This document shows, one piece after another, positions 1 to 20,635 of a stretch of DNA of 46,655 bases. Where the stretch lies: the IMG/VR virus record IMGVR_UViG_2721755711_000007. One strand, 5' to 3'. The stretch's first letter is position 1. Every line of letters begins with the position of its first letter. This DNA is from a virus (lineage: Duplodnaviria > Heunggongvirae > Uroviricota > Caudoviricetes). Below the pieces are notes generated by a model. The model ran no database searches. It was given only the letters and a program-made list of their open reading frames with translations, and was not told the DNA's origin. The position numbers were made by a program, and so were the translations under genes.

Positions 1-1164
1 TTACGCCTTCTTTATATCCTCCATAATTCCAGAGTGGGACATATTTGGGACATTATCACCAAAAATGTCGTCTATTTTCCTCGCATGCTCTGTCAAATGA
101 TTAGGCGCAAGGTGAGCATACCTACGAACCATTTCTATGGACTCCCATCCGCCCATTTCCTGAAGCACTGATAATGGGACGCCTGACTGAATCAGCCAGC
201 TTGCCCAGGTGTGTCTGAGGTCATGGAAACGGAAATCTTCAATTCCTGCACGACGACAAGCTGATAGCCATGATGTCTTGCTGTCGATGCGCATCTTCCT
301 GACCGCAGGCGTTGATGTTCCATCTGCTCGCTTAGCCGCCTTGGTATGTACAAACACCCATTTGTGATGCTTGCCTATTTGATCACGCAACACTTTACAG
401 GCGGTATCGTTCAGCGCCACACCAATGGCGCGGTTTGATTTGCTCTCTTCTGGATTCACCCAGGCAACTCGTCGCTGCATGTCGATTTGTTGCCATTCCA
501 GATTTATGATGTTCGACTTTCTCAGACCAGTTGCCAGCGCAAACTTGACGACAGATTTCAGTGGTTCGGGGCACTCATCAATAAGGCGTTTTGCTTCCTC
601 CTTTTCCAGCCATCTGACTCGCTTGTTTCTGACCGCTGGTATCTTGATGACAGGCGCTTTTTCCAGCCACTTCCAGTCGCGTTCTGCAGCACGGAGAATG
701 GCCTTTATCATGGCAAGATGCTTTGCCTTTGTCTGAGTTGATACTGGCTTTGGTTCATAAACAGGCGGTTCTTTACCTTTCCTGATGGCGGCCTGAACTT
801 TCTGTTTCCATATTTCTTTCGTCTTTCTGTTATGCATTCTGCTTACAGCAGAGTAAATCTTTGCCTCCGAGATATCTTTAAGCCTTATACCCTCAAAATG
901 TTCAAGCCAGAACTCAATCCGGCTTTTATCTGAATCGAGAGATTTTTTATCAGCTTTTTCCTCAAGCCATCTTAGGCAGGCCTCTTCAAAAGTGACATCA
1001 GGTAAATCCCCTAGCTTTTCTACTCGCCAGAGTTCTGCTTTTCGCTTGTCGTGCAACTCCTGAGCTTGCCGCTTGTCCTTTGTGCCAAGAGATTCCTTAA
1101 TTCGTTTCTCGCCCGGGAGCGAATACGAGGCATACCATATTTCATTTCTGCGGAAGAGTGACAT
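1..1164 (-). CDS. intD: Phage tyrosine integrase (DLP12 IntD-like), 387 aa
   Basis: Full ORF on minus strand; C-terminal catalytic region with R...HDLRHTWAS...RRY arrangement typical of tyrosine recombinases; located at prophage edge next to xis. Confidence 0.9.
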
Positions 1165-7621: not shown

Positions 7622-7633
7622 ATTTCCATTTCA

Positions 7634-7646
7634 CGCTCTTTAACAA
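7634..7646 (+). promoter_or_regulatory. boxA-like element (CGCTCTTTAACAA) in nutR position
   Basis: Matches boxA consensus CGCTCTT(T)A and the rrn boxA TGCTCTTTAACAA; 13 nt after cro stop; no obvious boxB hairpin follows. Confidence 0.45.
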
Positions 7647-7690
7647 TAAGCAATCAACTTAACAGTCAATTCAAACTAAAGGAGTCAATT

Positions 7691-8230
7691 ATGCAACCAC
7701 TTACATACCAACAGACTAGCGGATTTAGCCCGACTGCGGTGATAAATCGTTCTCAAACAAAACAGGTGCCAGGCCACGAAAAAATCCGTGATGCCGTCCG
7801 CGCCTGGTCGGCTGTAGATAATCAGGATGTCGTTGCCACACTCATTGTGAATGAGTATCGGGAGCAGGGCGGCGGCACCATCGATTTCCCTGATGATGTC
7901 AGCCGTGCACGCCAGAAGCTGTTCCGCTTCCTCGATAACAAATTCGATTCTGAAAAATACCGAAATAACGTGCGTGAACTGACCCCGGCAATTCTGGCGG
8001 TACTACCGCTGGAATATCGCGGTTACCTGGTTGAGCAGGATAGCTTCATGGCTAGGTTGGCTGAAATGGAAAAGGAACTCAGTGAGGCAAAACAGGCTGT
8101 CATTCTCAACGCACCACGCCACCAGAAACTGAAGGAAATTAGTGAAGGTATTGTGTCGATGTTTCGTGTGGACCCAGATCTGGCTGGTCCATTGATGGCG
8201 ATGGTTACTACCATGCTGGGGGCGATATGA
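7691..8230 (+). CDS. YdaT/CII-like regulatory protein, 179 aa
   Basis: Occupies cII position; similar in motif pattern to Rac YdaT as I recall it; AAGGAG ribosome-binding site. Confidence 0.6.
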   Translation: MQPLTYQQTSGFSPTAVINRSQTKQVPGHEKIRDAVRAWSAVDNQDVVATLIVNEYREQGGGTIDFPDDVSRARQKLFRFLDNKFDSEKYRNNVRELTPAILAVLPLEYRGYLVEQDSFMARLAEMEKELSEAKQAVILNAPRHQKLKEISEGIVSMFRVDPDLAGPLMAMVTTMLGAI

Positions 8231-9246: not shown

Positions 9247-9944
9247 AAAACATCGCCGCACAGATGATTAACTTTGACCGTGAGCAGATGCGTCGGATCG
9301 CCAACAACATGCCGGAACAGTACGACGAAAAGCCGCAGGTACAGCAGGTAGCGCAGATAATCAACGGTGTATTCAGCCAGTTACTGGCAACTTTCCCGGC
9401 GAGCCTGGCTAATCGTGACCAGAACGAACTGAACGAAATCCGCCGCCAGTGGGTTCTGGCTTTCCGGGAAAACGGGATCACCACGATGGAACAGGTGAGC
9501 GCCGGAATGCGTGTTGCCCGTCGGCAGAATAGACCATTTCTGCCATCACCCGGGCAGTTTGTTGCATGGTGCCGGGAAGAAGCATCCGTTACCGCCGGGC
9601 TGCCAAACGTCAGCGAGCTGGTTGATATGGTTTACGAGTATTGCCGGAAGCGTGGTCTGTATCCGGATGCAGAGTCTTATCCGTGGAAATCAAACGCGCA
9701 CTACTGGCTGGTTACCAACCTGTATCAGAACATGCGGGCCAATGCGTTGACTGACGCGGAATTACGGCGCAAGGCTGCCGATGAACTGTCCTGTATGACC
9801 GCGCGAATTAACCGTGGTGAGGCGATACCTGAACCAGTAAAACAACTTCCTGTCATGGGCGGTAGACCTCTAAATCGTGCACAGGCTCTGGCGAAGATCG
9901 CAGAAATCAAAGCTAAGTTCGGACTGAAAGGAGCAAGTGTATGA
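9243..9944 (+). CDS. P: Replication protein P (DnaB helicase loader), 233 aa
   Basis: Translation near-identical to lambda P (MKNIAAQMxNFDREQMRRIANNMPEQYDEKPQVQQVAQIINGV...). Confidence 0.95.
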   Translation: MKNIAAQMINFDREQMRRIANNMPEQYDEKPQVQQVAQIINGVFSQLLATFPASLANRDQNELNEIRRQWVLAFRENGITTMEQVSAGMRVARRQNRPFLPSPGQFVAWCREEASVTAGLPNVSELVDMVYEYCRKRGLYPDAESYPWKSNAHYWLVTNLYQNMRANALTDAELRRKAADELSCMTARINRGEAIPEPVKQLPVMGGRPLNRAQALAKIAEIKAKFGLKGASV

Positions 9945-10243
9945 CGGGCAAAGAGGCAATTATTCATTACCTGGGGACGCATAAGAGCTTCTGTGCACAG
10001 GACGTTGCCGCGGTAACAGGCGCAACCGTAACCAGCATAAATCAGGCTGCGGCTAAAATGGCGCGGGCAGGAATCCTGGTCGTTGATGGTAAGGTCTGGC
10101 GAACGGTGTATTACCGGTTCGCTACCAGAGAAGAACGGGAAGGAAAGGTGAGCACGAATCTGATTTTTAAGGAGTGTCGCCAGAGTGCCGCGATGAAACG
10201 GGTACTGAGGGTATATAAAAGAACATCAATGGGAACACAATGA
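9941..10243 (+). CDS. ren: Ren-like protein, 100 aa
   Basis: Translation matches lambda Ren over most of its length, with a divergent C-terminus at the junction with the low-GC island. Confidence 0.8.
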   Translation: MTGKEAIIHYLGTHKSFCAQDVAAVTGATVTSINQAAAKMARAGILVVDGKVWRTVYYRFATREEREGKVSTNLIFKECRQSAAMKRVLRVYKRTSMGTQ

Positions 10244-10310
10244 TGAAACAGGTGAGTTGAGTTCAAACTGTAGTACAATTCTCTCCAGTTTGAACAGGAA
10301 AGAATATGCT

Positions 10311-10643
10311 ATGAACCCTTATATTTATCTTGGTGGTGCAATACTTGCAGAGGTCATTGGTACAACCTTAATGAAGTTTTCAGAAGGTTTTACACGGTTA
10401 TGGCCATCTGTTGGTACAATTATTTGTTATTGTGCATCATTCTGGTTATTAGCTCAGACGCTGGCTTATATTCCTACAGGGATTGCTTATGCTATCTGGT
10501 CAGGAGTCGGTATTGTCCTGATTAGCTTACTGTCATGGGGATTTTTCGGCCAACGGCTGGACCTGCCAGCCATTATAGGCATGATGTTGATTTGTGCCGG
10601 TGTGTTGGTTATTAATTTATTGTCACGAAGCACACCACATTAA
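10311..10643 (+). CDS. emrE: SMR-family multidrug efflux transporter EmrE, 110 aa
   Basis: Four-TM 110-aa protein MNPYIYLGGAILAEVIGTTLMKFSEGF... matching EmrE with the conserved membrane-embedded Glu. Confidence 0.9.
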   Translation: MNPYIYLGGAILAEVIGTTLMKFSEGFTRLWPSVGTIICYCASFWLLAQTLAYIPTGIAYAIWSGVGIVLISLLSWGFFGQRLDLPAIIGMMLICAGVLVINLLSRSTPH

Positions 10644-10673
10644 AATAATTTGTTTCTAAACGACTAAAATATG

Positions 10674-10714
10674 GAGGCTCTTATATTTATATGAGCCTCG
10701 TTTTATGCTTTTTG
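10674..10714 (+). terminator. Putative rho-independent terminator after emrE
   Basis: GAGGCTC-12 nt loop-GAGCCTC hairpin followed by GTTTTATGCTTTTTG. Confidence 0.5.
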
Positions 10715-10897
10715 TTAATGTCTTTATTTTTTATGTATTCTTTTGTGCTTTCAAGATTATGGCGTAAGAAAATTGCAATACGATTATTGTTGTATATTCA
10801 AGATAATGTGACCTTAATTGTCTTTTTAAATAAAAATTAAACAAAAATTATATCCCACCACTAAGGTTTATAAAAGCATACGTTAGCAGGTGTCACC

Positions 10898-12424
10898 ATG
10901 AAAAAAGCCATAGCATATATGCGATTTTCATCACCAGGTCAGATGTCTGGCGACTCATTAAACCGACAGAGAAGACTTATTGCTGAATGGTTAAAGGTAA
11001 ATAGTGATTATTATCTTGATACCATAACATATGAAGATTTAGGATTAAGTGCATTCAAAGGAAAGCATGCACAATCAGGAGCTTTTTCGGAATTTTTAGA
11101 TGCTATAGAGCATGGTTATATATTGCCAGGAACTACATTGTTAGTTGAAAGTCTGGACAGACTTTCAAGAGAAAAAGTCGGTGAAGCGATTGAACGTCTG
11201 AAATTGATTTTGAATCACGGTATTGATGTTATAACTCTTTGCGACAATACAGTCTATAATATTGACTCTTTGAATGAGCCATATTCATTAATAAAAGCCA
11301 TACTTATAGCACAAAGGGCAAATGAAGAAAGCGAGATAAAGTCAAGTCGGGTTAAATTATCATGGAAGAAAAAACGGCAGGATGCACTGGAATCAGGTAC
11401 GATTATGACGGCGTCTTGTCCGAGATGGCTCTCCTTAGATGACAAAAGAACGGCTTTTGTTCCAGACCCCGACAGGGTGAAAACTATTGAGCTAATTTTT
11501 AAACTCAGGATGGAAAGGCGCTCATTGAATGCAATAGCCAAGTATTTAAATGATCATGCTGTAAAGAATTTCTCAGGAAAAGAAAGTGCATGGGGACCTT
11601 CTGTAATTGAAAAATTATTAGCGAATAAAGCTCTGATAGGTATATGCGTACCTTCATATCGTGCAAGAGGGAAAGGGATAAGTGAAATCGCTGGCTATTA
11701 TCCCAGAGTCATATCAGATGATTTGTTTTACGCTGTACAGGAAATTCGGTTGGCACCTTTTGGTATTAGCAATAGTAGCAAGAATCCTATGCTAATAAAT
11801 CTACTTCGAACAGTTATGAAGTGTGAGGCTTGTGGTAATACCATGATTGTTCATGCGGTATCTGGAAGTTTGCATGGCTATTATGTTTGTCCGATGAGAA
11901 GATTACATCGATGTGACAGGCCATCAATAAAAAGAGATTTGGTTGATTATAATATCATTAATGAATTGCTTTTTAATTGTAGCAAAATTCAACCAGTTGA
12001 AAACAAGAAAGATGCTAATGAAACTTTAGAGTTAAAAATTATTGAGCTTCAGATGAAAATTAATAATTTAATCGTTGCATTGTCTGTCGCGCCTGAAGTT
12101 ACCGCTATAGCAGAGAAAATAAGACTATTAGATAAGGAATTACGAAGGGCTTCGGTATCATTGAAAACTTTGAAGAGTAAAGGTGTAAATTCATTCAGTG
12201 ATTTTTATGCTATTGACTTAACCAGTAAAAATGGACGAGAGTTATGCCGTACACTTGCCTATAAAACATTCGAAAAAATCATAATTAATACGGATAATAA
12301 AACCTGTGATATCTATTTTATGAATGGCATTGTTTTTAAACACTATCCTTTAATGAAAGTAATATCCGCCCAGCAGGCGATAAGTGCTCTCAAATATATG
12401 GTTGATGGTGAGATTTATTTCTAA
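10898..12424 (+). CDS. ybcK: Large serine recombinase-family protein (YbcK-like), 508 aa
   Basis: N-terminal resolvase catalytic motifs (YMRFSSPGQ with Ser, LDRLSR), recombinase domain and Cys-rich zinc-ribbon (CEACG...CPMRRLHRC). Confidence 0.85.
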   Translation: MKKAIAYMRFSSPGQMSGDSLNRQRRLIAEWLKVNSDYYLDTITYEDLGLSAFKGKHAQSGAFSEFLDAIEHGYILPGTTLLVESLDRLSREKVGEAIERLKLILNHGIDVITLCDNTVYNIDSLNEPYSLIKAILIAQRANEESEIKSSRVKLSWKKKRQDALESGTIMTASCPRWLSLDDKRTAFVPDPDRVKTIELIFKLRMERRSLNAIAKYLNDHAVKNFSGKESAWGPSVIEKLLANKALIGICVPSYRARGKGISEIAGYYPRVISDDLFYAVQEIRLAPFGISNSSKNPMLINLLRTVMKCEACGNTMIVHAVSGSLHGYYVCPMRRLHRCDRPSIKRDLVDYNIINELLFNCSKIQPVENKKDANETLELKIIELQMKINNLIVALSVAPEVTAIAEKIRLLDKELRRASVSLKTLKSKGVNSFSDFYAIDLTSKNGRELCRTLAYKTFEKIIINTDNKTCDIYFMNGIVFKHYPLMKVISAQQAISALKYMVDGEIYF

Positions 12425-12805
12425 ATAATGATCTCGGATTTTAAGTTATGCTATGGTGATAAAGTGCAAGACAGAATTAATTATCTTTGACGAAACTTAA
12501 TGGGTAATTACTTTGTTTGCTCCCACAAGCGAGTTTTGTACGGCTGTATTGGGGTAGTAAATGAGCTATACAATCTTAATCATTTGTTAGGTGAGAACTC
12601 TTGGTCGCAGATTCAAATACTGAAAATACGTGACAAATTATTATGAGCAAAATGGTGTATGTCACGTATTTTGAATGGTAGGTTAAAAAATAACACCGAC
12701 TTTCGTAGGTATTACTAATAATAAAGCAGAGTTTTTAGATAGTATCAATGTGCTTTGTGTATATTGTGGCAAATAATTGGGTTGGGGGTACAATTGTGAT
12801 TGCTT

Positions 12806-12835
12806 TTGCATGAACATTGCGCCTTTATGCATAAT
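12806..12835 (+). promoter_or_regulatory. Putative sigma70 promoter for ybcL (-35 TTGCAT, 18-bp spacer, -10 CATAAT)
   Basis: Hexamers read in the A/T-rich intergenic region about 55 nt upstream of the ybcL ATG. Confidence 0.3.
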
Positions 12836-12888
12836 GAGATAAAGGAATATCAAATAAAATAACGATAGGTCATAACAAAGAGGTTTTT

Positions 12889-13440
12889 ATGAAAACACTT
12901 ATCGTTTCAACTGTATTGGCATTCATAACATTTTCTGCGCAGGCTGCAGCATTTCAGGTCACTAGTAATGAAATAAAAACAGGAGAGCAACTTACAACGT
13001 CTCATGTCTTTTCTGGATTTGGGTGTGAAGGTGGTAATACATCGCCCTCATTAACCTGGTCTGGTGTTCCTGAAGGTACCAAAAGCTTTGCCGTAACTGT
13101 ATATGATCCAGATGCACCTACAGGCAGTGGTTGGTGGCATTGGACTGTTGTTAATATTCCAGCAACAGTAACATATTTGCCCGTTGATGCAGGGAGACGT
13201 GATGGAACAAAACTGCCGACTGGTGCTGTTCAAGGCCGAAATGATTTTGGCTATGCTGGGTTTGGTGGCGCATGTCCTCCTAAAGGAGATAAACCACATC
13301 ATTACCAGTTTAAAGTATGGGCTCTAAAAACTGAAAAGATTCCTGTAGATTCTAACTCCAGCGGAGCGTTAGTTGGTTATATGCTTAATGCTAATAAAAT
13401 CGCAACCGCTGAGATAACACCAGTTTATGAGATAAAGTAG
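12889..13440 (+). CDS. ybcL: Periplasmic PEBP/RKIP-family protein (YbcL-like) with signal peptide, 183 aa
   Basis: N-terminal signal peptide MKTLIVSTVLAFITFSAQA; PEBP-type motifs (DPDAPT...WxHW, HHY). Confidence 0.85.
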   Translation: MKTLIVSTVLAFITFSAQAAAFQVTSNEIKTGEQLTTSHVFSGFGCEGGNTSPSLTWSGVPEGTKSFAVTVYDPDAPTGSGWWHWTVVNIPATVTYLPVDAGRRDGTKLPTGAVQGRNDFGYAGFGGACPPKGDKPHHYQFKVWALKTEKIPVDSNSSGALVGYMLNANKIATAEITPVYEIK

Positions 13441-13449
13441 GGTGAGAGT

Positions 13450-14247
13450 ATGCTGGCAAGAGGTAAGACTAACTTAAAGATCGAAGAAATACGGATGCAT
13501 AAACATCATGAGATTCATAGGGTTAAGCCTCTTATGCCAGCTTTGTGTCGTATCCGTCAGGGAAAGAAAGTTATCAATTGGGAGACGCATACTTTAACTG
13601 TTGATAATAATCAAATAATATTATTTCCTTGTGGTTATGAATTTTATATTGAGAATTATCCTGAAGCAGGGCTTTATCTTGCAGAAATGCTTTACTTACC
13701 CATTGATTTAATTGAGAGTTTCCAAAAACTTTATACGGTAACTGATCAAATACGTAACAAAACAAGTTTCTTTTTACCTCAGAATCCTGAGTTAATATAT
13801 TGTTGGGAGCAACTAAAAACATCTGTTTCCCGAGGCTTCTCAACTAAAATTCAGGAGCACTTAGCAATGGGCGTTCTACTTTCGTTAGGAGTGAATCATG
13901 TTAATCATTTACTTTTATCATATAGTAAACAATCATTGATAAGTCGTTGTTATAACCTGCTGCTATCCGAACCCGGCACAAAATGGACAGCAAACAAGGT
14001 TGCTCGATATCTCTACATTTCTGTTTCTACATTACATCGCCGTCTAGCAAGCGAGGGGGTAAGTTTCCAAAGTATACTGGACGATGTGAGGTTAAATAAT
14101 GCGTTGTCTGCTATACAAACGACGGTAAAACCTATAAGCGAGATTGCCAGAGAAAATGGTTATAAGTGTCCTTCTCGTTTTACTGAAAGATTTCATAATC
14201 GTTTTAATATAACACCAAGAGAGATAAGAAAAGCTTCCAGAGAGTAA
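13450..14247 (+). CDS. ybcM: AraC-family transcriptional regulator (YbcM-like), 265 aa
   Basis: C-terminal AraC-type HTH region; 10 nt downstream of ybcL. Confidence 0.8.
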
Positions 14248-14311
14248 AAGTGTTTTAAGAAGGAGCAATTCTATCGATTTTGATTTTGGGAAATCAACAC
14301 GGCATAATTAT

Positions 14312-14345
14312 GTCACCGGAGCCTGAACAACTCCGGTGACTTCTG
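14312..14345 (+). terminator. Putative terminator hairpin after ybcM (10-bp stem GTCACCGGAG/CTCCGGTGAC)
   Basis: Perfect 10-bp inverted repeat with 9-nt loop followed by a weak TTCT tract. Confidence 0.4.
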
Positions 14346-14363
14346 CGCTAAACGGGGACGTTT

Positions 14364-14465
14364 ATGCGCACATACAATCCAAACTCTCTTCTCCCTTCAC
14401 AGATGCAGAAATGCACCTGCAATTCTTTGCATCTAGCGTTTGACCTCTGCGGAGGTGAAGCGTGA
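14364..14465 (+). CDS. ylcH: Small protein YlcH-like, 33 aa
   Basis: 33-codon [36 protein letters not shown] ending in a TGA that overlaps the ybcN start. Confidence 0.45.
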
Positions 14466-14917
14466 ACCTCTCACAAGACGGCATCAAATTACATCGCGGC
14501 AACTTCACCGCTATCGGTCGGCAGATCCAGCCTTATCTGGAGGAGGGCAAATGCTTTCGCATGGTGCTTAAACCGTGGCGTGAGAAACGCAGTCTTTCCC
14601 AGAATGCACTCAGCCACATGTGGTACAGCGAAATCAGTGAATACCTCATCAGCAGGGGTAAAACGTTCGCCACTCCAGCTTGGGTAAAAGATGCTCTCAA
14701 ACACACATATCTCGGTTATGAAACCAAAGACCTGGTTGATGTCGTAACCGGTGATATCACCACTATCCAGTCGTTACGCCATACCTCCGATCTTGATACC
14801 GGAGAGATGTATGTCTTCCTGTGTAAGGTTGAAGCCTGGGCGGTGAATATTGGCTGCCACCTGACTATTCCGCAGAGCTGCGAGTTCCAGCTGCTCCGCG
14901 ACAAGCAGGAGGCGTAA
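14462..14917 (+). CDS. ybcN: NinB-family recombination protein (YbcN-like), 151 aa, GTG start
   Basis: Similar motif pattern to lambda NinB/Orf ([11 protein letters not shown]); synteny with ninE-rusA. Confidence 0.85.
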
Positions 14918-15087
14918 TGGCTACACCGCTTATTCGTGTCATGAACGGACACATCTACAGAGTATCAAATCGTCGTAAGCGTAAGCCTGAGCTGAAGCCA
15001 TCCGAAATACCAACACTGCTCGGATATACCGCTAGCCTGGTTGATAAAAAATGGTTGCGACTGGCAGCAAGGAGGAATCATGGCTGA
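14917..15087 (+). CDS. ninE: NinE-like protein, 56 aa
   Basis: ATG overlaps ybcN stop (TAATG); basic small protein resembling lambda NinE (K/R-rich, W-L-R-x-x-A-R). Confidence 0.7.
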   Translation: MATPLIRVMNGHIYRVSNRRKRKPELKPSEIPTLLGYTASLVDKKWLRLAARRNHG

Positions 15088-15951: not shown

Positions 15952-16335
15952 ATGCGTGATATTCAGATGGTTCTTGAGCGTTGGGGAGCGTGGGCGGCTA
16001 ATAATCATGAAGATGTGACCTGGTCGTCCATTGCCGCCGGTTTTAAGGGATTAATTACTTCAAAAGTAAAATCTCGCCCGCAATGTTGTGACGATGACGC
16101 GATGATTATTTGCGGGTGCATGGCCCGTCTGAAAAAGAACAACAGCGATTTGCACGATTTATTAGTAGATTATTATGTAGTCGGTATGACATTCATGTCA
16201 CTGGCAGGTAAGCATTGCTGCTCTGATGGTTATATCGGGAAAAGGTTACAGAAGGCTGAGGGCATAATTGAAGGGATGTTAATGGCATTAGATATCCGGT
16301 TAGAGATGGATATCGTTGTTAATAACTCTAATTAA
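15952..16335 (+). CDS. quuD: Late-gene antiterminator Q (phage 82/21-type), 127 aa
   Basis: [20 protein letters not shown]... with Cys cluster; last gene of nin operon. Confidence 0.85.
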
Positions 16336-16369
16336 TATGCCAATTGTTTACTAAAAATTATTAAAAATG

Positions 16370-16500
16370 GGGCGTTGCAACGCCCCCAAAAATAAAGGGT
16401 AATATATAACAGAAGGTTTATATAGTTAGAAGCAAGGTTGTGCTCCTAAAGGAAGTGGCTTGAGGGAGCCACTTATATGTTGGGGAGGCAAAGCCTCCCG
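16370..16500. terminator. Cluster of three GC-rich inverted repeats between convergent quuD and nmpC (likely bidirectional terminators)
   Basis: GGGGCGTTGCAACGCCCC (16370-16387, U-run on minus side), GTGGCTtgagggAGCCAC (16456-16473), GGGAGGCaaaGCCTCCC (16484-16500). Confidence 0.45.
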
Positions 16501-16523
16501 CAACATATCTTTTAGTAATCAAA

Positions 16524-17606
16524 TTAGAACTGGTAAACCATACCTACAGCAACGATATCATCGGTAGCAACGCCAGATGCTTTCGTGAAATCGCTCTTAT
16601 CAATCAGGTTGATTTTGTAATCAACAAAAGTGGACATATTTTTGTTGAAGTAATAGGTTGCACCTACATCAATATATTCAACCAGGTCCTGATCACCCCA
16701 CGCACCCAAGTCTTTTCCTTTAGATTGCAGGTAAGCAACGGACGGACGCAGACCGAAGTCGAACTGATATTGTGCAACTACTTCGAAGTTTTGTGCTTTG
16801 TTGGCAATATGGTTATTACCAAAAACAGTCATGTTCTGGGTTTCAGAATAGGTGGTAGCCAGATAGATGTTGTTCGCATCATATTTCAGACCAGCTGCCC
16901 ATACTTCAGCATTTTGACCAGATGCATTCAGGCTGTTGTTACCGTAGATAACCTGATTATTAGTGCGGTCAGATTTAGCATAGGTTGCACCTACACCGAA
17001 TCCTTCATACTCATAAGTAGTGGAGAAACCGAAACCATCACCATTAGCTTCAGTTACGTCAGTGCGGTCATTTTTACCCTGATACTGAGCAGCAAAGTTC
17101 AGACCATCAACCAGACCAAAGAAGTCGTTGTTACGATAAGTTGCAACACCAGTGGTGCGACCAGTCATGAACACATCTGTTTGGGTCCAGGTATCGCCAC
17201 CGAATTCTGGCAGAACGTCAGTCCACGCACCGATGTCATATGCTACACCGTAGTTACGGCCGTAATCGATTGAGCCGTAGTCCCCGAATTTCAGGCCTGC
17301 AAATGCAAGACGGGTTTTGTCTTTGGAGGAGCCTTGAGATTCAGCGCGGTTGCCTTTGAATTCATATTCCCACTGACCGAAACCAGTCAGTTGATCGTTG
17401 ATTTGGGTTTCACCTTTGAAGCCAAGACGGGCATAAGTAGTATCACCATCATCTGCATCATTAGAGGAGAAGTAGTGCTTGGCATTAACTTTCCCATATA
17501 GATCCAGCTTGTTACTGTCTTTATTATAAATTTCAGCTGCCTGAGCAGACATCGCCATCAGTACTGATGCAGCTACAGCAGAAATTGCCACTGTTAATTT
17601 TTTCAT
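16524..17606 (-). CDS. nmpC: Outer-membrane general porin NmpC (OmpC/OmpF family), 360 aa, intact
   Basis: Signal peptide [23 protein letters not shown]; beta-barrel porin ending in the C-terminal MVYQF signature. Confidence 0.95.
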
Positions 17607-17976
17607 CGTGAGCCCTTTTTTTTGAACTATTATTAAAAAATGATGTCACCGCGCGATAAATATTCATCTAATCAATGTGATTATTTCAAGATGTAAGTTT
17701 TGGTTTCTCGTTTGATTTGTGAAGTAGATCTCTATTTTTATCTGAACTTTTTTCTATCGAATCCTATTCATGGATCTTGGCTGAATAAAAATAAATCTAT
17801 TAGCCAATTTATATTAACGGCTGTTATTTATAAGTGCTCTGTAATTTGAAGGTTCAATTTAAATCGGCTAAAAATAACACTGGAAATTATTTGTTGGTTA
17901 TTTGTTGAGATTTGCTTATGTATTTGTAGTGGTGTTTTCAATACTCGGTAGCATTCTCGCAAATATCATTTTGTGG

Positions 17977-18004
17977 TTTACGTACGTAAAAAATTGGTTA
18001 TGCT
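17977..18004 (+). promoter_or_regulatory. Candidate late promoter PR' (-35 TTTACG, 16-bp spacer, -10 TATGCT)
   Basis: Hexamers read about 30 nt upstream of the tR'-like hairpin and about 190 nt upstream of the holin gene. Confidence 0.3.
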
Positions 18005-20458: not shown

Positions 20459-20635
20459 CGCGGGTTTTCGCTATTTATGAAAATTTTCCGGTTTAAGGCG
20501 TTTCCGTTCTTCTTCGTCATAACTTAATGTTTTTATTTAAAATACCCTCTGAAAAGAAAGGAAACGACAGGTGCTGAAAGCGAGCTTTTTGGCCTCTGTC
20601 GTTTCCTTTCTCTGTTTTTGTCCGTGGAATGAACA

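Follow-up and report, generated by a model that had tools for sequence, protein, structure and literature searches.

The window analysed here is the whole 46,655-nucleotide stretch of viral DNA (Caudoviricetes) in IMG/VR record IMGVR_UViG_2721755711_000007. The low-G+C block at positions 10257-14247 of this window is the already annotated emrE-ybcK-ybcL-ybcM cargo of DLP12-type lambda-like Escherichia coli phages, a known arrangement and no new element. This cargo, or "moron," was probably assembled piecemeal by mosaic recombination, not acquired as one mobile island, and in a lysogen it would work as three independent units. The original prediction, made from the sequence before any comparison, had described a single island inserted between ren and the nin genes, and had suggested that its large serine recombinase, YbcK, could mobilize the island or control an invertible or excisable switch.

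The genes of the block are those of E. coli K-12 b0543-b0546, annotated emrE, ylcJ, ybcK, ybcL, and ybcM. The region is 100% identical to one E. coli chromosome, is identical over this region to the isolated temperate phages PhiR34_1 and PhiR68_2, and is 99.7 to 99.9% identical to its DLP12 counterpart in K-12, with which it shares genes, gene order, and the exact spacing of emrE, ybcK, and ybcL. In contrast to DLP12 of K-12, which is a prophage remnant, the phage in the window is complete. A tyrosine integrase gene lies at its left end (1-1164, minus strand) and is followed by exo/bet, cI, cro, cII, O, P, ren, and then the cargo block. On the 3' side of the block, the order is ybcN-ninE-ybcO-rusA-ylcG-Q, a porin gene, and the lysis and structural (head and tail) genes. 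The G+C content of 10257-14247 is 0.363, versus 0.525 across the remainder of the window, and the block ranks lowest among 854 sliding 4-kb windows, the lowest nonoverlapping one being at 0.430. The predicted difference in base composition from the flanks (36.3% versus 52.5%) is thus borne out, and open reading frames (ORFs) and Pfam domains likewise confirm the four proposed gene identities (EmrE, YbcK, YbcL, and YbcM). The small ORF ylcJ is additional to these. The placement between ren and the NinB-like ybcN also stands, the NinB-like match of ybcN being weak (22.3 bits, slightly below the cutoff). PADLOC returned no match for the five block proteins, and Rfam returned none in 9500-15000.

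The block sits in a general hypervariable cargo hot spot between ren and ybcN. Comparison with sister prophages, which had been proposed as the way to define the junctions, was made by blastn of the window against five of them and placed the edges of the variable block at approximately 10204 and 14277/14278:

10204..10243, plus strand: left slot edge, the last approximately 13 codons of ren, part of the variable segment
14278..14340, plus strand: right slot edge, where the conserved backbone resumes; the same junction in five sister prophages with five different cargos

In all five, the backbone matches the window as far as 9944 or 10203 and resumes at exactly 14278. On the left, a sister prophage that has different cargo (L007) is homologous up to 10203, and homology to a chromosomal emrE-ybcLM copy begins at 10235. 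Two of the sister cargos lack emrE-ybcK, one holding a SIR2 protein and another two hypothetical genes; the others consist of emrE-ylcJ-ybcK alone, with a P22AR-domain gene and a hypothetical gene, or with an alpha/beta hydrolase. Viable isolates with the same P, ren, and nin genes carry Rha, PD-lambda-1, an acyltransferase with a lipoprotein, or a methylase in the slot. Because these isolates have the same backbone and other genes at this place, the block is dispensable for phage growth, as had been supposed. Two features of a moron are present, namely, a cargo that is replaceable in close relatives and a base composition unlike that of the phage backbone. At the right slot edge, an inverted repeat (TTGATT..AATCAA, 14280-14297) occurs in every variant examined, followed by a hairpin at 14312-14340 with a 10-bp stem (GTCACCGGAG..CTCCGGTGAC) and no T tract (−19.8 kcal/mol, z = −4.05). 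Lying upstream of ybcN, this boundary element (14278-14340) may serve the phage as a regulatory or terminator-like site.

Elsewhere, the slot after P holds candidate defense genes, among them SIR2 proteins, a 687-amino-acid C5 methylase, and PD-lambda-1 (L008, 1705-3636; L102, 3755-5695; L015, 7818-9881; and phage PhiR26_1), and it acts as a defense and cargo hot spot. The block resembles the cargo of other lambdoid moron and defense hot spots of the ren/nin region in being dispensable, foreign in composition, and codirectional with the early-right operon, and in having unrelated cargo, including SIR2 and PD-lambda-1, at the same place in sister phages. It differs from them in carrying a full-size serine integrase homologue, which is atypical as a lysogenic-conversion gene.

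The block comprises at least three modules with different distributions, namely, emrE, ylcJ-ybcK, and ybcLM with its own leader. The breakpoints of the second module were obtained by blastn against five loci (L001, L003, L002, L005, and L006):

10651..12465, plus strand: ylcJ-ybcK unit, absent from the chromosomal copy and common to four phage cargo variants
12466..12733, plus strand: spacer of the ybcLM variant, holding a 48-amino-acid ORF (12500-12646) with no family match

An emrE-ybcL junction without ybcK is found in 2,591 of 5,426 complete E. coli genomes. In the two such copies that were inspected (L003, 4001-7859; L001, 8001-10153), emrE-ybcL-ybcM adjoin fliE on the chromosome. The first of these corresponds to window positions 10235-10645, 12734-14464, and 16237-17944 joined end to end, that is, to emrE, ybcLM, and the porin gene, all low-G+C cargo, together with small scars of the backbone that include the 3' end of Q. 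The intervening phage genes are cleanly absent. Since only cargo pieces and backbone scars remain, the fliE-side copy is a decayed DLP12-like prophage in which the cargo alone was retained. Relative to it, the window has an extra 2,083 bp (10651-12733) starting 8 bp after the emrE stop codon. No ren-linked emrE-ybcL junction without ybcK occurs among the matches listed for the 5,426 genomes, these matches beginning at 10235. The ybcK gene is present in 1,426 genomes. The spacer between ybcK and ybcL (searched as 12426-12740) occurs only in 674 genomes, all with the full gene order of the window, at an identity of at least 98% (at least 99% in 671); a PHROG search gave no match for its 48-amino-acid ORF.

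Alleles have also been shuffled inside the block. The window variant and the P22AR variant have identical emrE genes and differ at 48 positions in ybcK, whereas the O157 variant has 7 differences from the window in ybcK and more upstream. On the 3' side of ybcK, three other variants share staggered linkers, one of which is also found in a prophage without ybcK. Because the distributions of the modules differ, the alleles are reshuffled, and the linkers are staggered, the block is a product of ordinary lambdoid mosaicism. Its junctions are the staggered homologous or illegitimate joints typical of that process and not an att-like pair, and the idea of one inserted island does not hold. Four candidate signals near these joints were set aside. 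The 130 bp upstream of ybcK had appeared to be conserved beyond the neutral rate, which reflects mosaic ancestry, as the window and P22AR variants share emrE and the ybcK upstream region and not ybcK itself. The position 41 bp after the ybcK stop codon, considered as a recurrent breakpoint or att crossover, is one historical joint, the next 27 bp being common to three other variants. The AATAAT found at both indel junctions is too short in A/T-rich DNA to be meaningful, and an IS1-mediated deletion after ylcJ in one sister prophage (L004) is uninformative.

YbcK is a complete and selectively maintained large serine recombinase of the integrase type, with catalysis predicted from its sequence and structural model:

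10898..12424, plus strand: ybcK, 508 amino acids, with Pfam Resolvase, Recombinase, and Zn_ribbon_recom domains

These domains match at 69.1 bits (PF00239), 53.9 bits (PF07508), and 33 bits (PF13408), and the protein belongs to PHROG 95, "integrase" (E = 4e-120). The catalytic serine, whose presence the original prediction had left to be checked on alignment, is S11, and together with R9, D87, R88, and R91, it is invariant among 20 homologues with identities down to 29%, as are the zinc-binding cysteines C309, C312, C331, and C339. The AlphaFold2 model, with a predicted local distance difference test score (pLDDT) of 79.7, consists of a catalytic domain, a long helix, a recombinase domain, a zinc ribbon, a coiled coil (residues 346 to 427), and a small C-terminal domain. 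Its best Foldseek matches are full-length serine integrases on att DNA (9dxd, 9dxh, PhiC31, and Bxb1). Between E. coli alleles, the ratio of nonsynonymous to synonymous substitution rates (dN/dS) is 0.08 at a dS of 0.12 to 0.13, and 79 of 80 copies are full length. Apart from a sabinene-tolerance screen, literature searches yielded nothing on the function of YbcK.

With the PhiC31, Bxb1, and A118/LI integrases, YbcK shares the order of domains and a predicted structure that aligns over its full length to integrase-att complexes. It differs in that the sequence relation is remote (no PDB sequence match at E ≤ 1e-5), that no attP/attB pair or directionality factor was identified for it, and that its gene lies away from the prophage edge in a phage with a separate tyrosine integrase. 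PinE, PinQ, PinR, and Gin/Cin are also serine recombinases, the first three being encoded on E. coli cryptic prophages, and small prophage serine invertases of this kind can have host-level roles (PMC12529663). Only the catalytic domain of YbcK is related to them (PHROG 125, E = 2e-21). YbcK is approximately 300 amino acids longer and has integrase-type DNA-binding domains; furthermore, no invertible segment or inverted repeats flank ybcK, and no inverted variants exist in the population. The enzyme class is shared with Tn4451 TnpX, the Ccr recombinases of SCCmec, and the recombinases of the skin and fdxN elements, and there is a weak similarity to XisF (NCBIfam, 46.9 bits, far below the cutoff of 375). 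Those elements have defined ends and comoving cargo, neither of which was found here.

The arrangement around ybcK is constant. Typing of 80 IMG/VR loci gave only four architectures, all with a single order and strand, which reads P-ren-emrE-ylcJ-ybcK-(cargo)-ybcN wherever the contig extends that far. In all 80, ybcK is internal, between emrE and the cargo, and not at the edge of an element, and no excised, relocated, or inverted form was seen among them. Two IMG/VR contigs that start exactly at ybcK (L144 and L149) are probably cuts made by provirus-boundary software and were not taken as junctions. Repeat searches of the block and of the whole window listed 43 short weak pairs, none of them at the ends of the block or of the ybcK unit. 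An inverted pair that brackets the unit (10613/12629) was rejected, as 34 of 500 shuffles score at least as well. Neither the window nor relatives have repeats or shared palindromes around ybcK-type genes, although att sites need not resemble each other. The suggested check for direct or inverted repeats flanking ybcK or the block therefore yielded no significant pair at the ends, which agrees with the earlier remark that partner sites are lacking in the window, as far as repeat searches can tell. The constant order and orientation in the 80 loci speak against YbcK mobilizing the island or driving a switch. A recombinase gene inside a compositionally foreign block invites the reading of the entire block as a single integrative or invertible element with ends recombined by YbcK. 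This is largely refuted and very improbable, given that the modules differ in distribution and history, that the edges are generic slot boundaries used by unrelated cargos, that flanking repeats are absent, and that neither an empty, relocated, or inverted form in the typed loci nor a ren-linked junction lacking ybcK among the genome matches listed was found.

Full-length relatives of YbcK, with 41 to 61% identity, occur across the Enterobacterales in four kinds of context. They are found at prophage edges behind tail-fiber or tail-fiber-assembly genes and adjoining host genes (ssrA in Atlantibacter and lepA in Erwinia; also in Ewingella, Yersinia, and Citrobacter); between P and NinG/Q in lambdoid prophages of Atlantibacter, in two versions, and, inverted, of Pantoea alvi; bordering a small AAA_25 island in Pantoea dispersa; and on megaplasmids of Duffyella and Pantoea, at mosaic joints with metabolic genes on both sides. 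The copies between P and Q form sublineages in Escherichia, Atlantibacter, and Pantoea phages. Those of Atlantibacter and Pantoea are closest to copies in other contexts of their own genera (83% and 97% amino acid identity, respectively, versus 48 to 60% between genera), and so the position between P and Q was reached at least three times. Between the two Pantoea contexts, homology is confined to 1.8 kb of DNA (−221 to +56 relative to the gene; 94% identity); the extent of the ybcK unit in E. coli, −247 to +41, is similar. In an Atlantibacter-type lambdoid prophage (L102), a recombinase-KGG-DinI segment is flanked by the two copies of a 229-bp direct repeat derived from the 5' part of a nin gene, DUF1367 (7623-7851 and 10609-10831). 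At the DNA level the copies share 82.5% identity and at the protein level 97%, showing that they come from different lineages. In Pantoea alvi (L029), the recombinase gene is opposite in orientation to P and Q and has an intact P on one side and, on the other, a P pseudogene interrupted by stop codons (residues 77 to 223; coordinates 9256-9693 and 12152-12859).

The search for empty and filled sites with identical flanks gave no pair for any member of the family, and for the plasmid copies, the flanks were shared on one side only. The notion that a recombinase at the prophage edge is the integrase of that prophage was weakened by two relatives in which a tyrosine integrase gene is adjacent (L184 and L188). 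In Erwinia-type phages, the recombinase gene stands on either side of two small phage genes; because this side varies, the edge position marks an accessory slot and is no proof of an integrase. Taken together, these patterns suggest a gene-sized traveling unit, and single illegitimate phage joins would leave the same pattern.

Small gene pairs, encoding approximately 80 and approximately 107 to 130 amino acids, accompany the recombinase gene on either side in other genera (upstream of it in L093, L017, L018, L193, and L194; also in L095 and L183). The larger member is weakly S24 peptidase-like in Ewingella. A directionality factor and a toxin-antitoxin pair are both possibilities for these pairs.

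The part of the block upstream of ybcK contains the following features:

10311..10643, plus strand: emrE, an SMR proton-coupled multidrug exporter of 110 amino acids, with E14 in the translation
10674..10714, plus strand: terminator-like hairpin after emrE, with an 11-bp stem and a 4-nucleotide loop, then the T tract GTTTTATGCTTTTTG
10691..10840, plus strand: ylcJ, a small ORF for a hydrophobic protein of 49 amino acids (Pfam PF23688, YlcJ)

EmrE is a well-characterized proton-coupled exporter. The protein in the window matches the SMR family (PF00893, 121.5 bits) and the NCBIfam model SMR_efflux_EmrE (NF042984, 240.6 bits versus a cutoff of 226), falls in the PHROG category "moron," and is aligned by PDB entry 3b5d from end to end (residues 1 to 110). 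The identity of the gene was predicted correctly, but its start was placed at an upstream TTG (10257); the 110-amino-acid EmrE begins at the ATG at 10311. The hairpin after emrE folds at −14 kcal/mol (z = −3.43), and none of 200 shuffles folds equally well. The ylcJ start codon lies inside this hairpin. Whether ylcJ is required is doubtful, as frameshifts or truncations affect it in several sister prophages that are otherwise intact (L002, L004, and L005); it is annotated as frameshifted in L004 and L005, and the O157 allele has a 10-bp deletion.

Downstream of ybcK, the block contains the ybcLM operon and its signals:

12623..12672, strand not assigned: inverted repeat with 13-bp perfect arms (AAAATACGTGACA ... 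TGTCACGTATTTT), a 24-nucleotide spacer, and A and U tracts
12788..12821, strand not assigned: YbcM site and ybcLM promoter region, mapped from the K-12 peak, 68 to 101 bp upstream of ybcL
12889..13440, plus strand: ybcL, a periplasmic PEBP/RKIP-like protein with a signal peptide
13450..14247, plus strand: ybcM, an AraC-family regulator that autoregulates ybcLM

YbcL matches Pfam PBP (PF01161, 144.5 bits) and NCBIfam PRK09818 (400 bits versus a cutoff of 277), and PDB entry 1fux, whose solved chain starts at residue 20, aligns to its residues 20 to 183. The NCBIfam and PDB matches of EmrE and YbcL are of equivalog or identity grade. YbcL is periplasmic, and a uropathogenic variant suppresses neutrophil migration (PMC4810123). 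YbcM has a C-terminal AraC-type double helix-turn-helix (HTH_18, PF12833, 61.5 bits versus 33.6). In K-12, the strongest YbcM peak in chromatin immunoprecipitation with exonuclease treatment (ChIP-exo) lies at 570015-570048, with a signal-to-noise ratio of 357, and is also bound by RNA polymerase (PMC8464067, supplement). This peak was transferred to the window with an offset of 557227, which was verified against the distances among emrE, ybcK, and ybcL. Deletion of ybcM in K-12 lowers survival in H2O2 eightfold (PMC8464067).

Only one other repeat like that at 12623-12672 exists in the 46.6-kb window, and a repeat of this kind arose in 2 of 300 Markov simulations of the block. As RNA, the inverted repeat folds into an A4-stem-U4 hairpin (−18.9 kcal/mol, z = −4.98), for which the simplest reading is an intrinsic terminator-like element in the interval from ybcK to ybcLM; it could be a protein-binding site instead. 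It is distinct from the YbcM ChIP-exo site. The claim that the block has its own promoters and terminators is only partly borne out. Hairpins follow emrE and ybcK, and the ChIP-exo site lies upstream of ybcL, but consensus promoter and terminator counts are no higher in the block than in shuffled sequence.

Three further observations concern the rest of the window. An intact 360-amino-acid porin gene of the nmpC/OmpC type lies downstream of Q (16524-17606, minus strand); the porin gene of DLP12 in K-12 is interrupted by IS5. After the porin gene, there is a second low-G+C stretch (0.32, window positions 17500-18000). The other long perfect inverted repeat of the window (20555-20611, with 16-bp arms and a 25-nucleotide spacer) lies within approximately 80 nucleotides upstream of the start of Nu1, the small terminase gene (20636), in the cos region.

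Three other accounts of ybcK compete with piecemeal cargo. It is unlikely that the ybcK unit (approximately 1.8 to 2.1 kb, with approximately 250 bp upstream and 40 bp downstream of the gene) is or descends from a minimal self-mobile element consisting of the recombinase gene only, or is what remains of a larger element whose integration took place at an att site beside ybcK, such units repeatedly landing in the accessory regions of temperate phages. The clean 2,083-bp indel right after the emrE stop codon agrees with this, as do the Pantoea recombinases (97% identical in amino acids) in a lambdoid nin region and at an AAA_25 island edge, where the stretch from −221 to +56 alone is homologous; the three P-Q sublineages, in which the nearest relatives found for Atlantibacter and Pantoea sit in different contexts; the unit of L102, bracketed by the direct repeat of the DUF1367 5' end; and the megaplasmid copies at mosaic joints between metabolic genes. 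Yet there is no movement within E. coli, no empty and filled pair with identical flanks for any member of the family, and no terminal repeat or shared palindrome around its members. Ordinary phage and plasmid mosaicism also yields sharp-bordered single-gene modules, and the strong purifying selection on an immobile copy is unlike a purely selfish element. Stated for the family, there is a comparably small chance that YbcK-type genes are an undescribed minimal mobile unit of the Enterobacterales, made of the recombinase gene with approximately 65 to 250 bp upstream and 40 to 60 bp downstream, recurrently inserted or captured between P and Q, behind tail-fiber genes, at island edges, and on megaplasmids, and kept by phage or host use, e.g., as a spare integrase.

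It is somewhat less likely still that YbcK is a second working phage integrase with its own attP near the gene, used for an alternative site when that of the tyrosine integrase is occupied. In its favor, YbcK resembles phage integrases in fold and in PHROG class, viable phages carry ybcK intact and under purifying selection, and relatives stand at prophage edges behind tail-fiber genes, near ssrA and lepA. However, no prophage is permuted at ybcK, every typed copy returning to ybcN downstream; a tyrosine integrase stands beside the recombinase in L184 and L188, and the variable position in Erwinia-type phages makes the edge an accessory slot. The least probable account is that ybcK is a decaying fossil without a present function. 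The gene is internal and far from a recognizable att site, and the literature searched assigns it no role, but the fossil account is contradicted by the dN/dS of 0.08 at a dS of 0.12 to 0.13, by 79 full-length copies out of 80, and by the retention of all catalytic and zinc-binding residues.

In the preferred account, that of DLP12-type cargo assembled by mosaic recombination, EmrE would export cationic toxic compounds, its transcript probably ending at the downstream hairpin. The ybcLM operon would be driven from the YbcM-bound promoter, as shown in K-12, and would deliver YbcL to the periplasm. The third unit, ybcK, would be a complete recombinase gene inherited as a compact gene-sized unit. 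YbcK would neither move nor invert the block, the phage presumably integrating via its own tyrosine integrase, and the DNA sites of YbcK would most likely lie outside the window. Four points weigh against this account. Purifying selection on a ybcK gene at a fixed position means that it has a useful role, which the account leaves unstated. The ybcK indel relative to the chromosomal copy can be read as an insertion or as a deletion. The figures for the 1,426 genomes rest on coverage summaries, with full typing covering 80 loci. Finally, because serine-integrase att sites need not resemble each other, the repeat search leaves room for such a site in the window, e.g., beside ybcK or at the 50-bp palindrome at 12623-12672.

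The gene order emrE-ybcL-ybcM, studied in K-12 as part of DLP12, recurs without ybcK in 2,591 of the 5,426 complete E. coli genomes, and the remnant beside fliE in the two copies inspected is a clear case in which the cargo was kept and the phage discarded. YbcK itself belongs to the small set of complete E. coli serine integrase homologues without a known substrate. It is conserved, its phages can be propagated in the laboratory, and its family recurs as a lone gene at recombination joints. Its sites, if found, would distinguish a reserve integration system of lambdoid phages from a small parasitic element that they host, and could give the serine-integrase toolbox an enzyme from a Gram-negative source.

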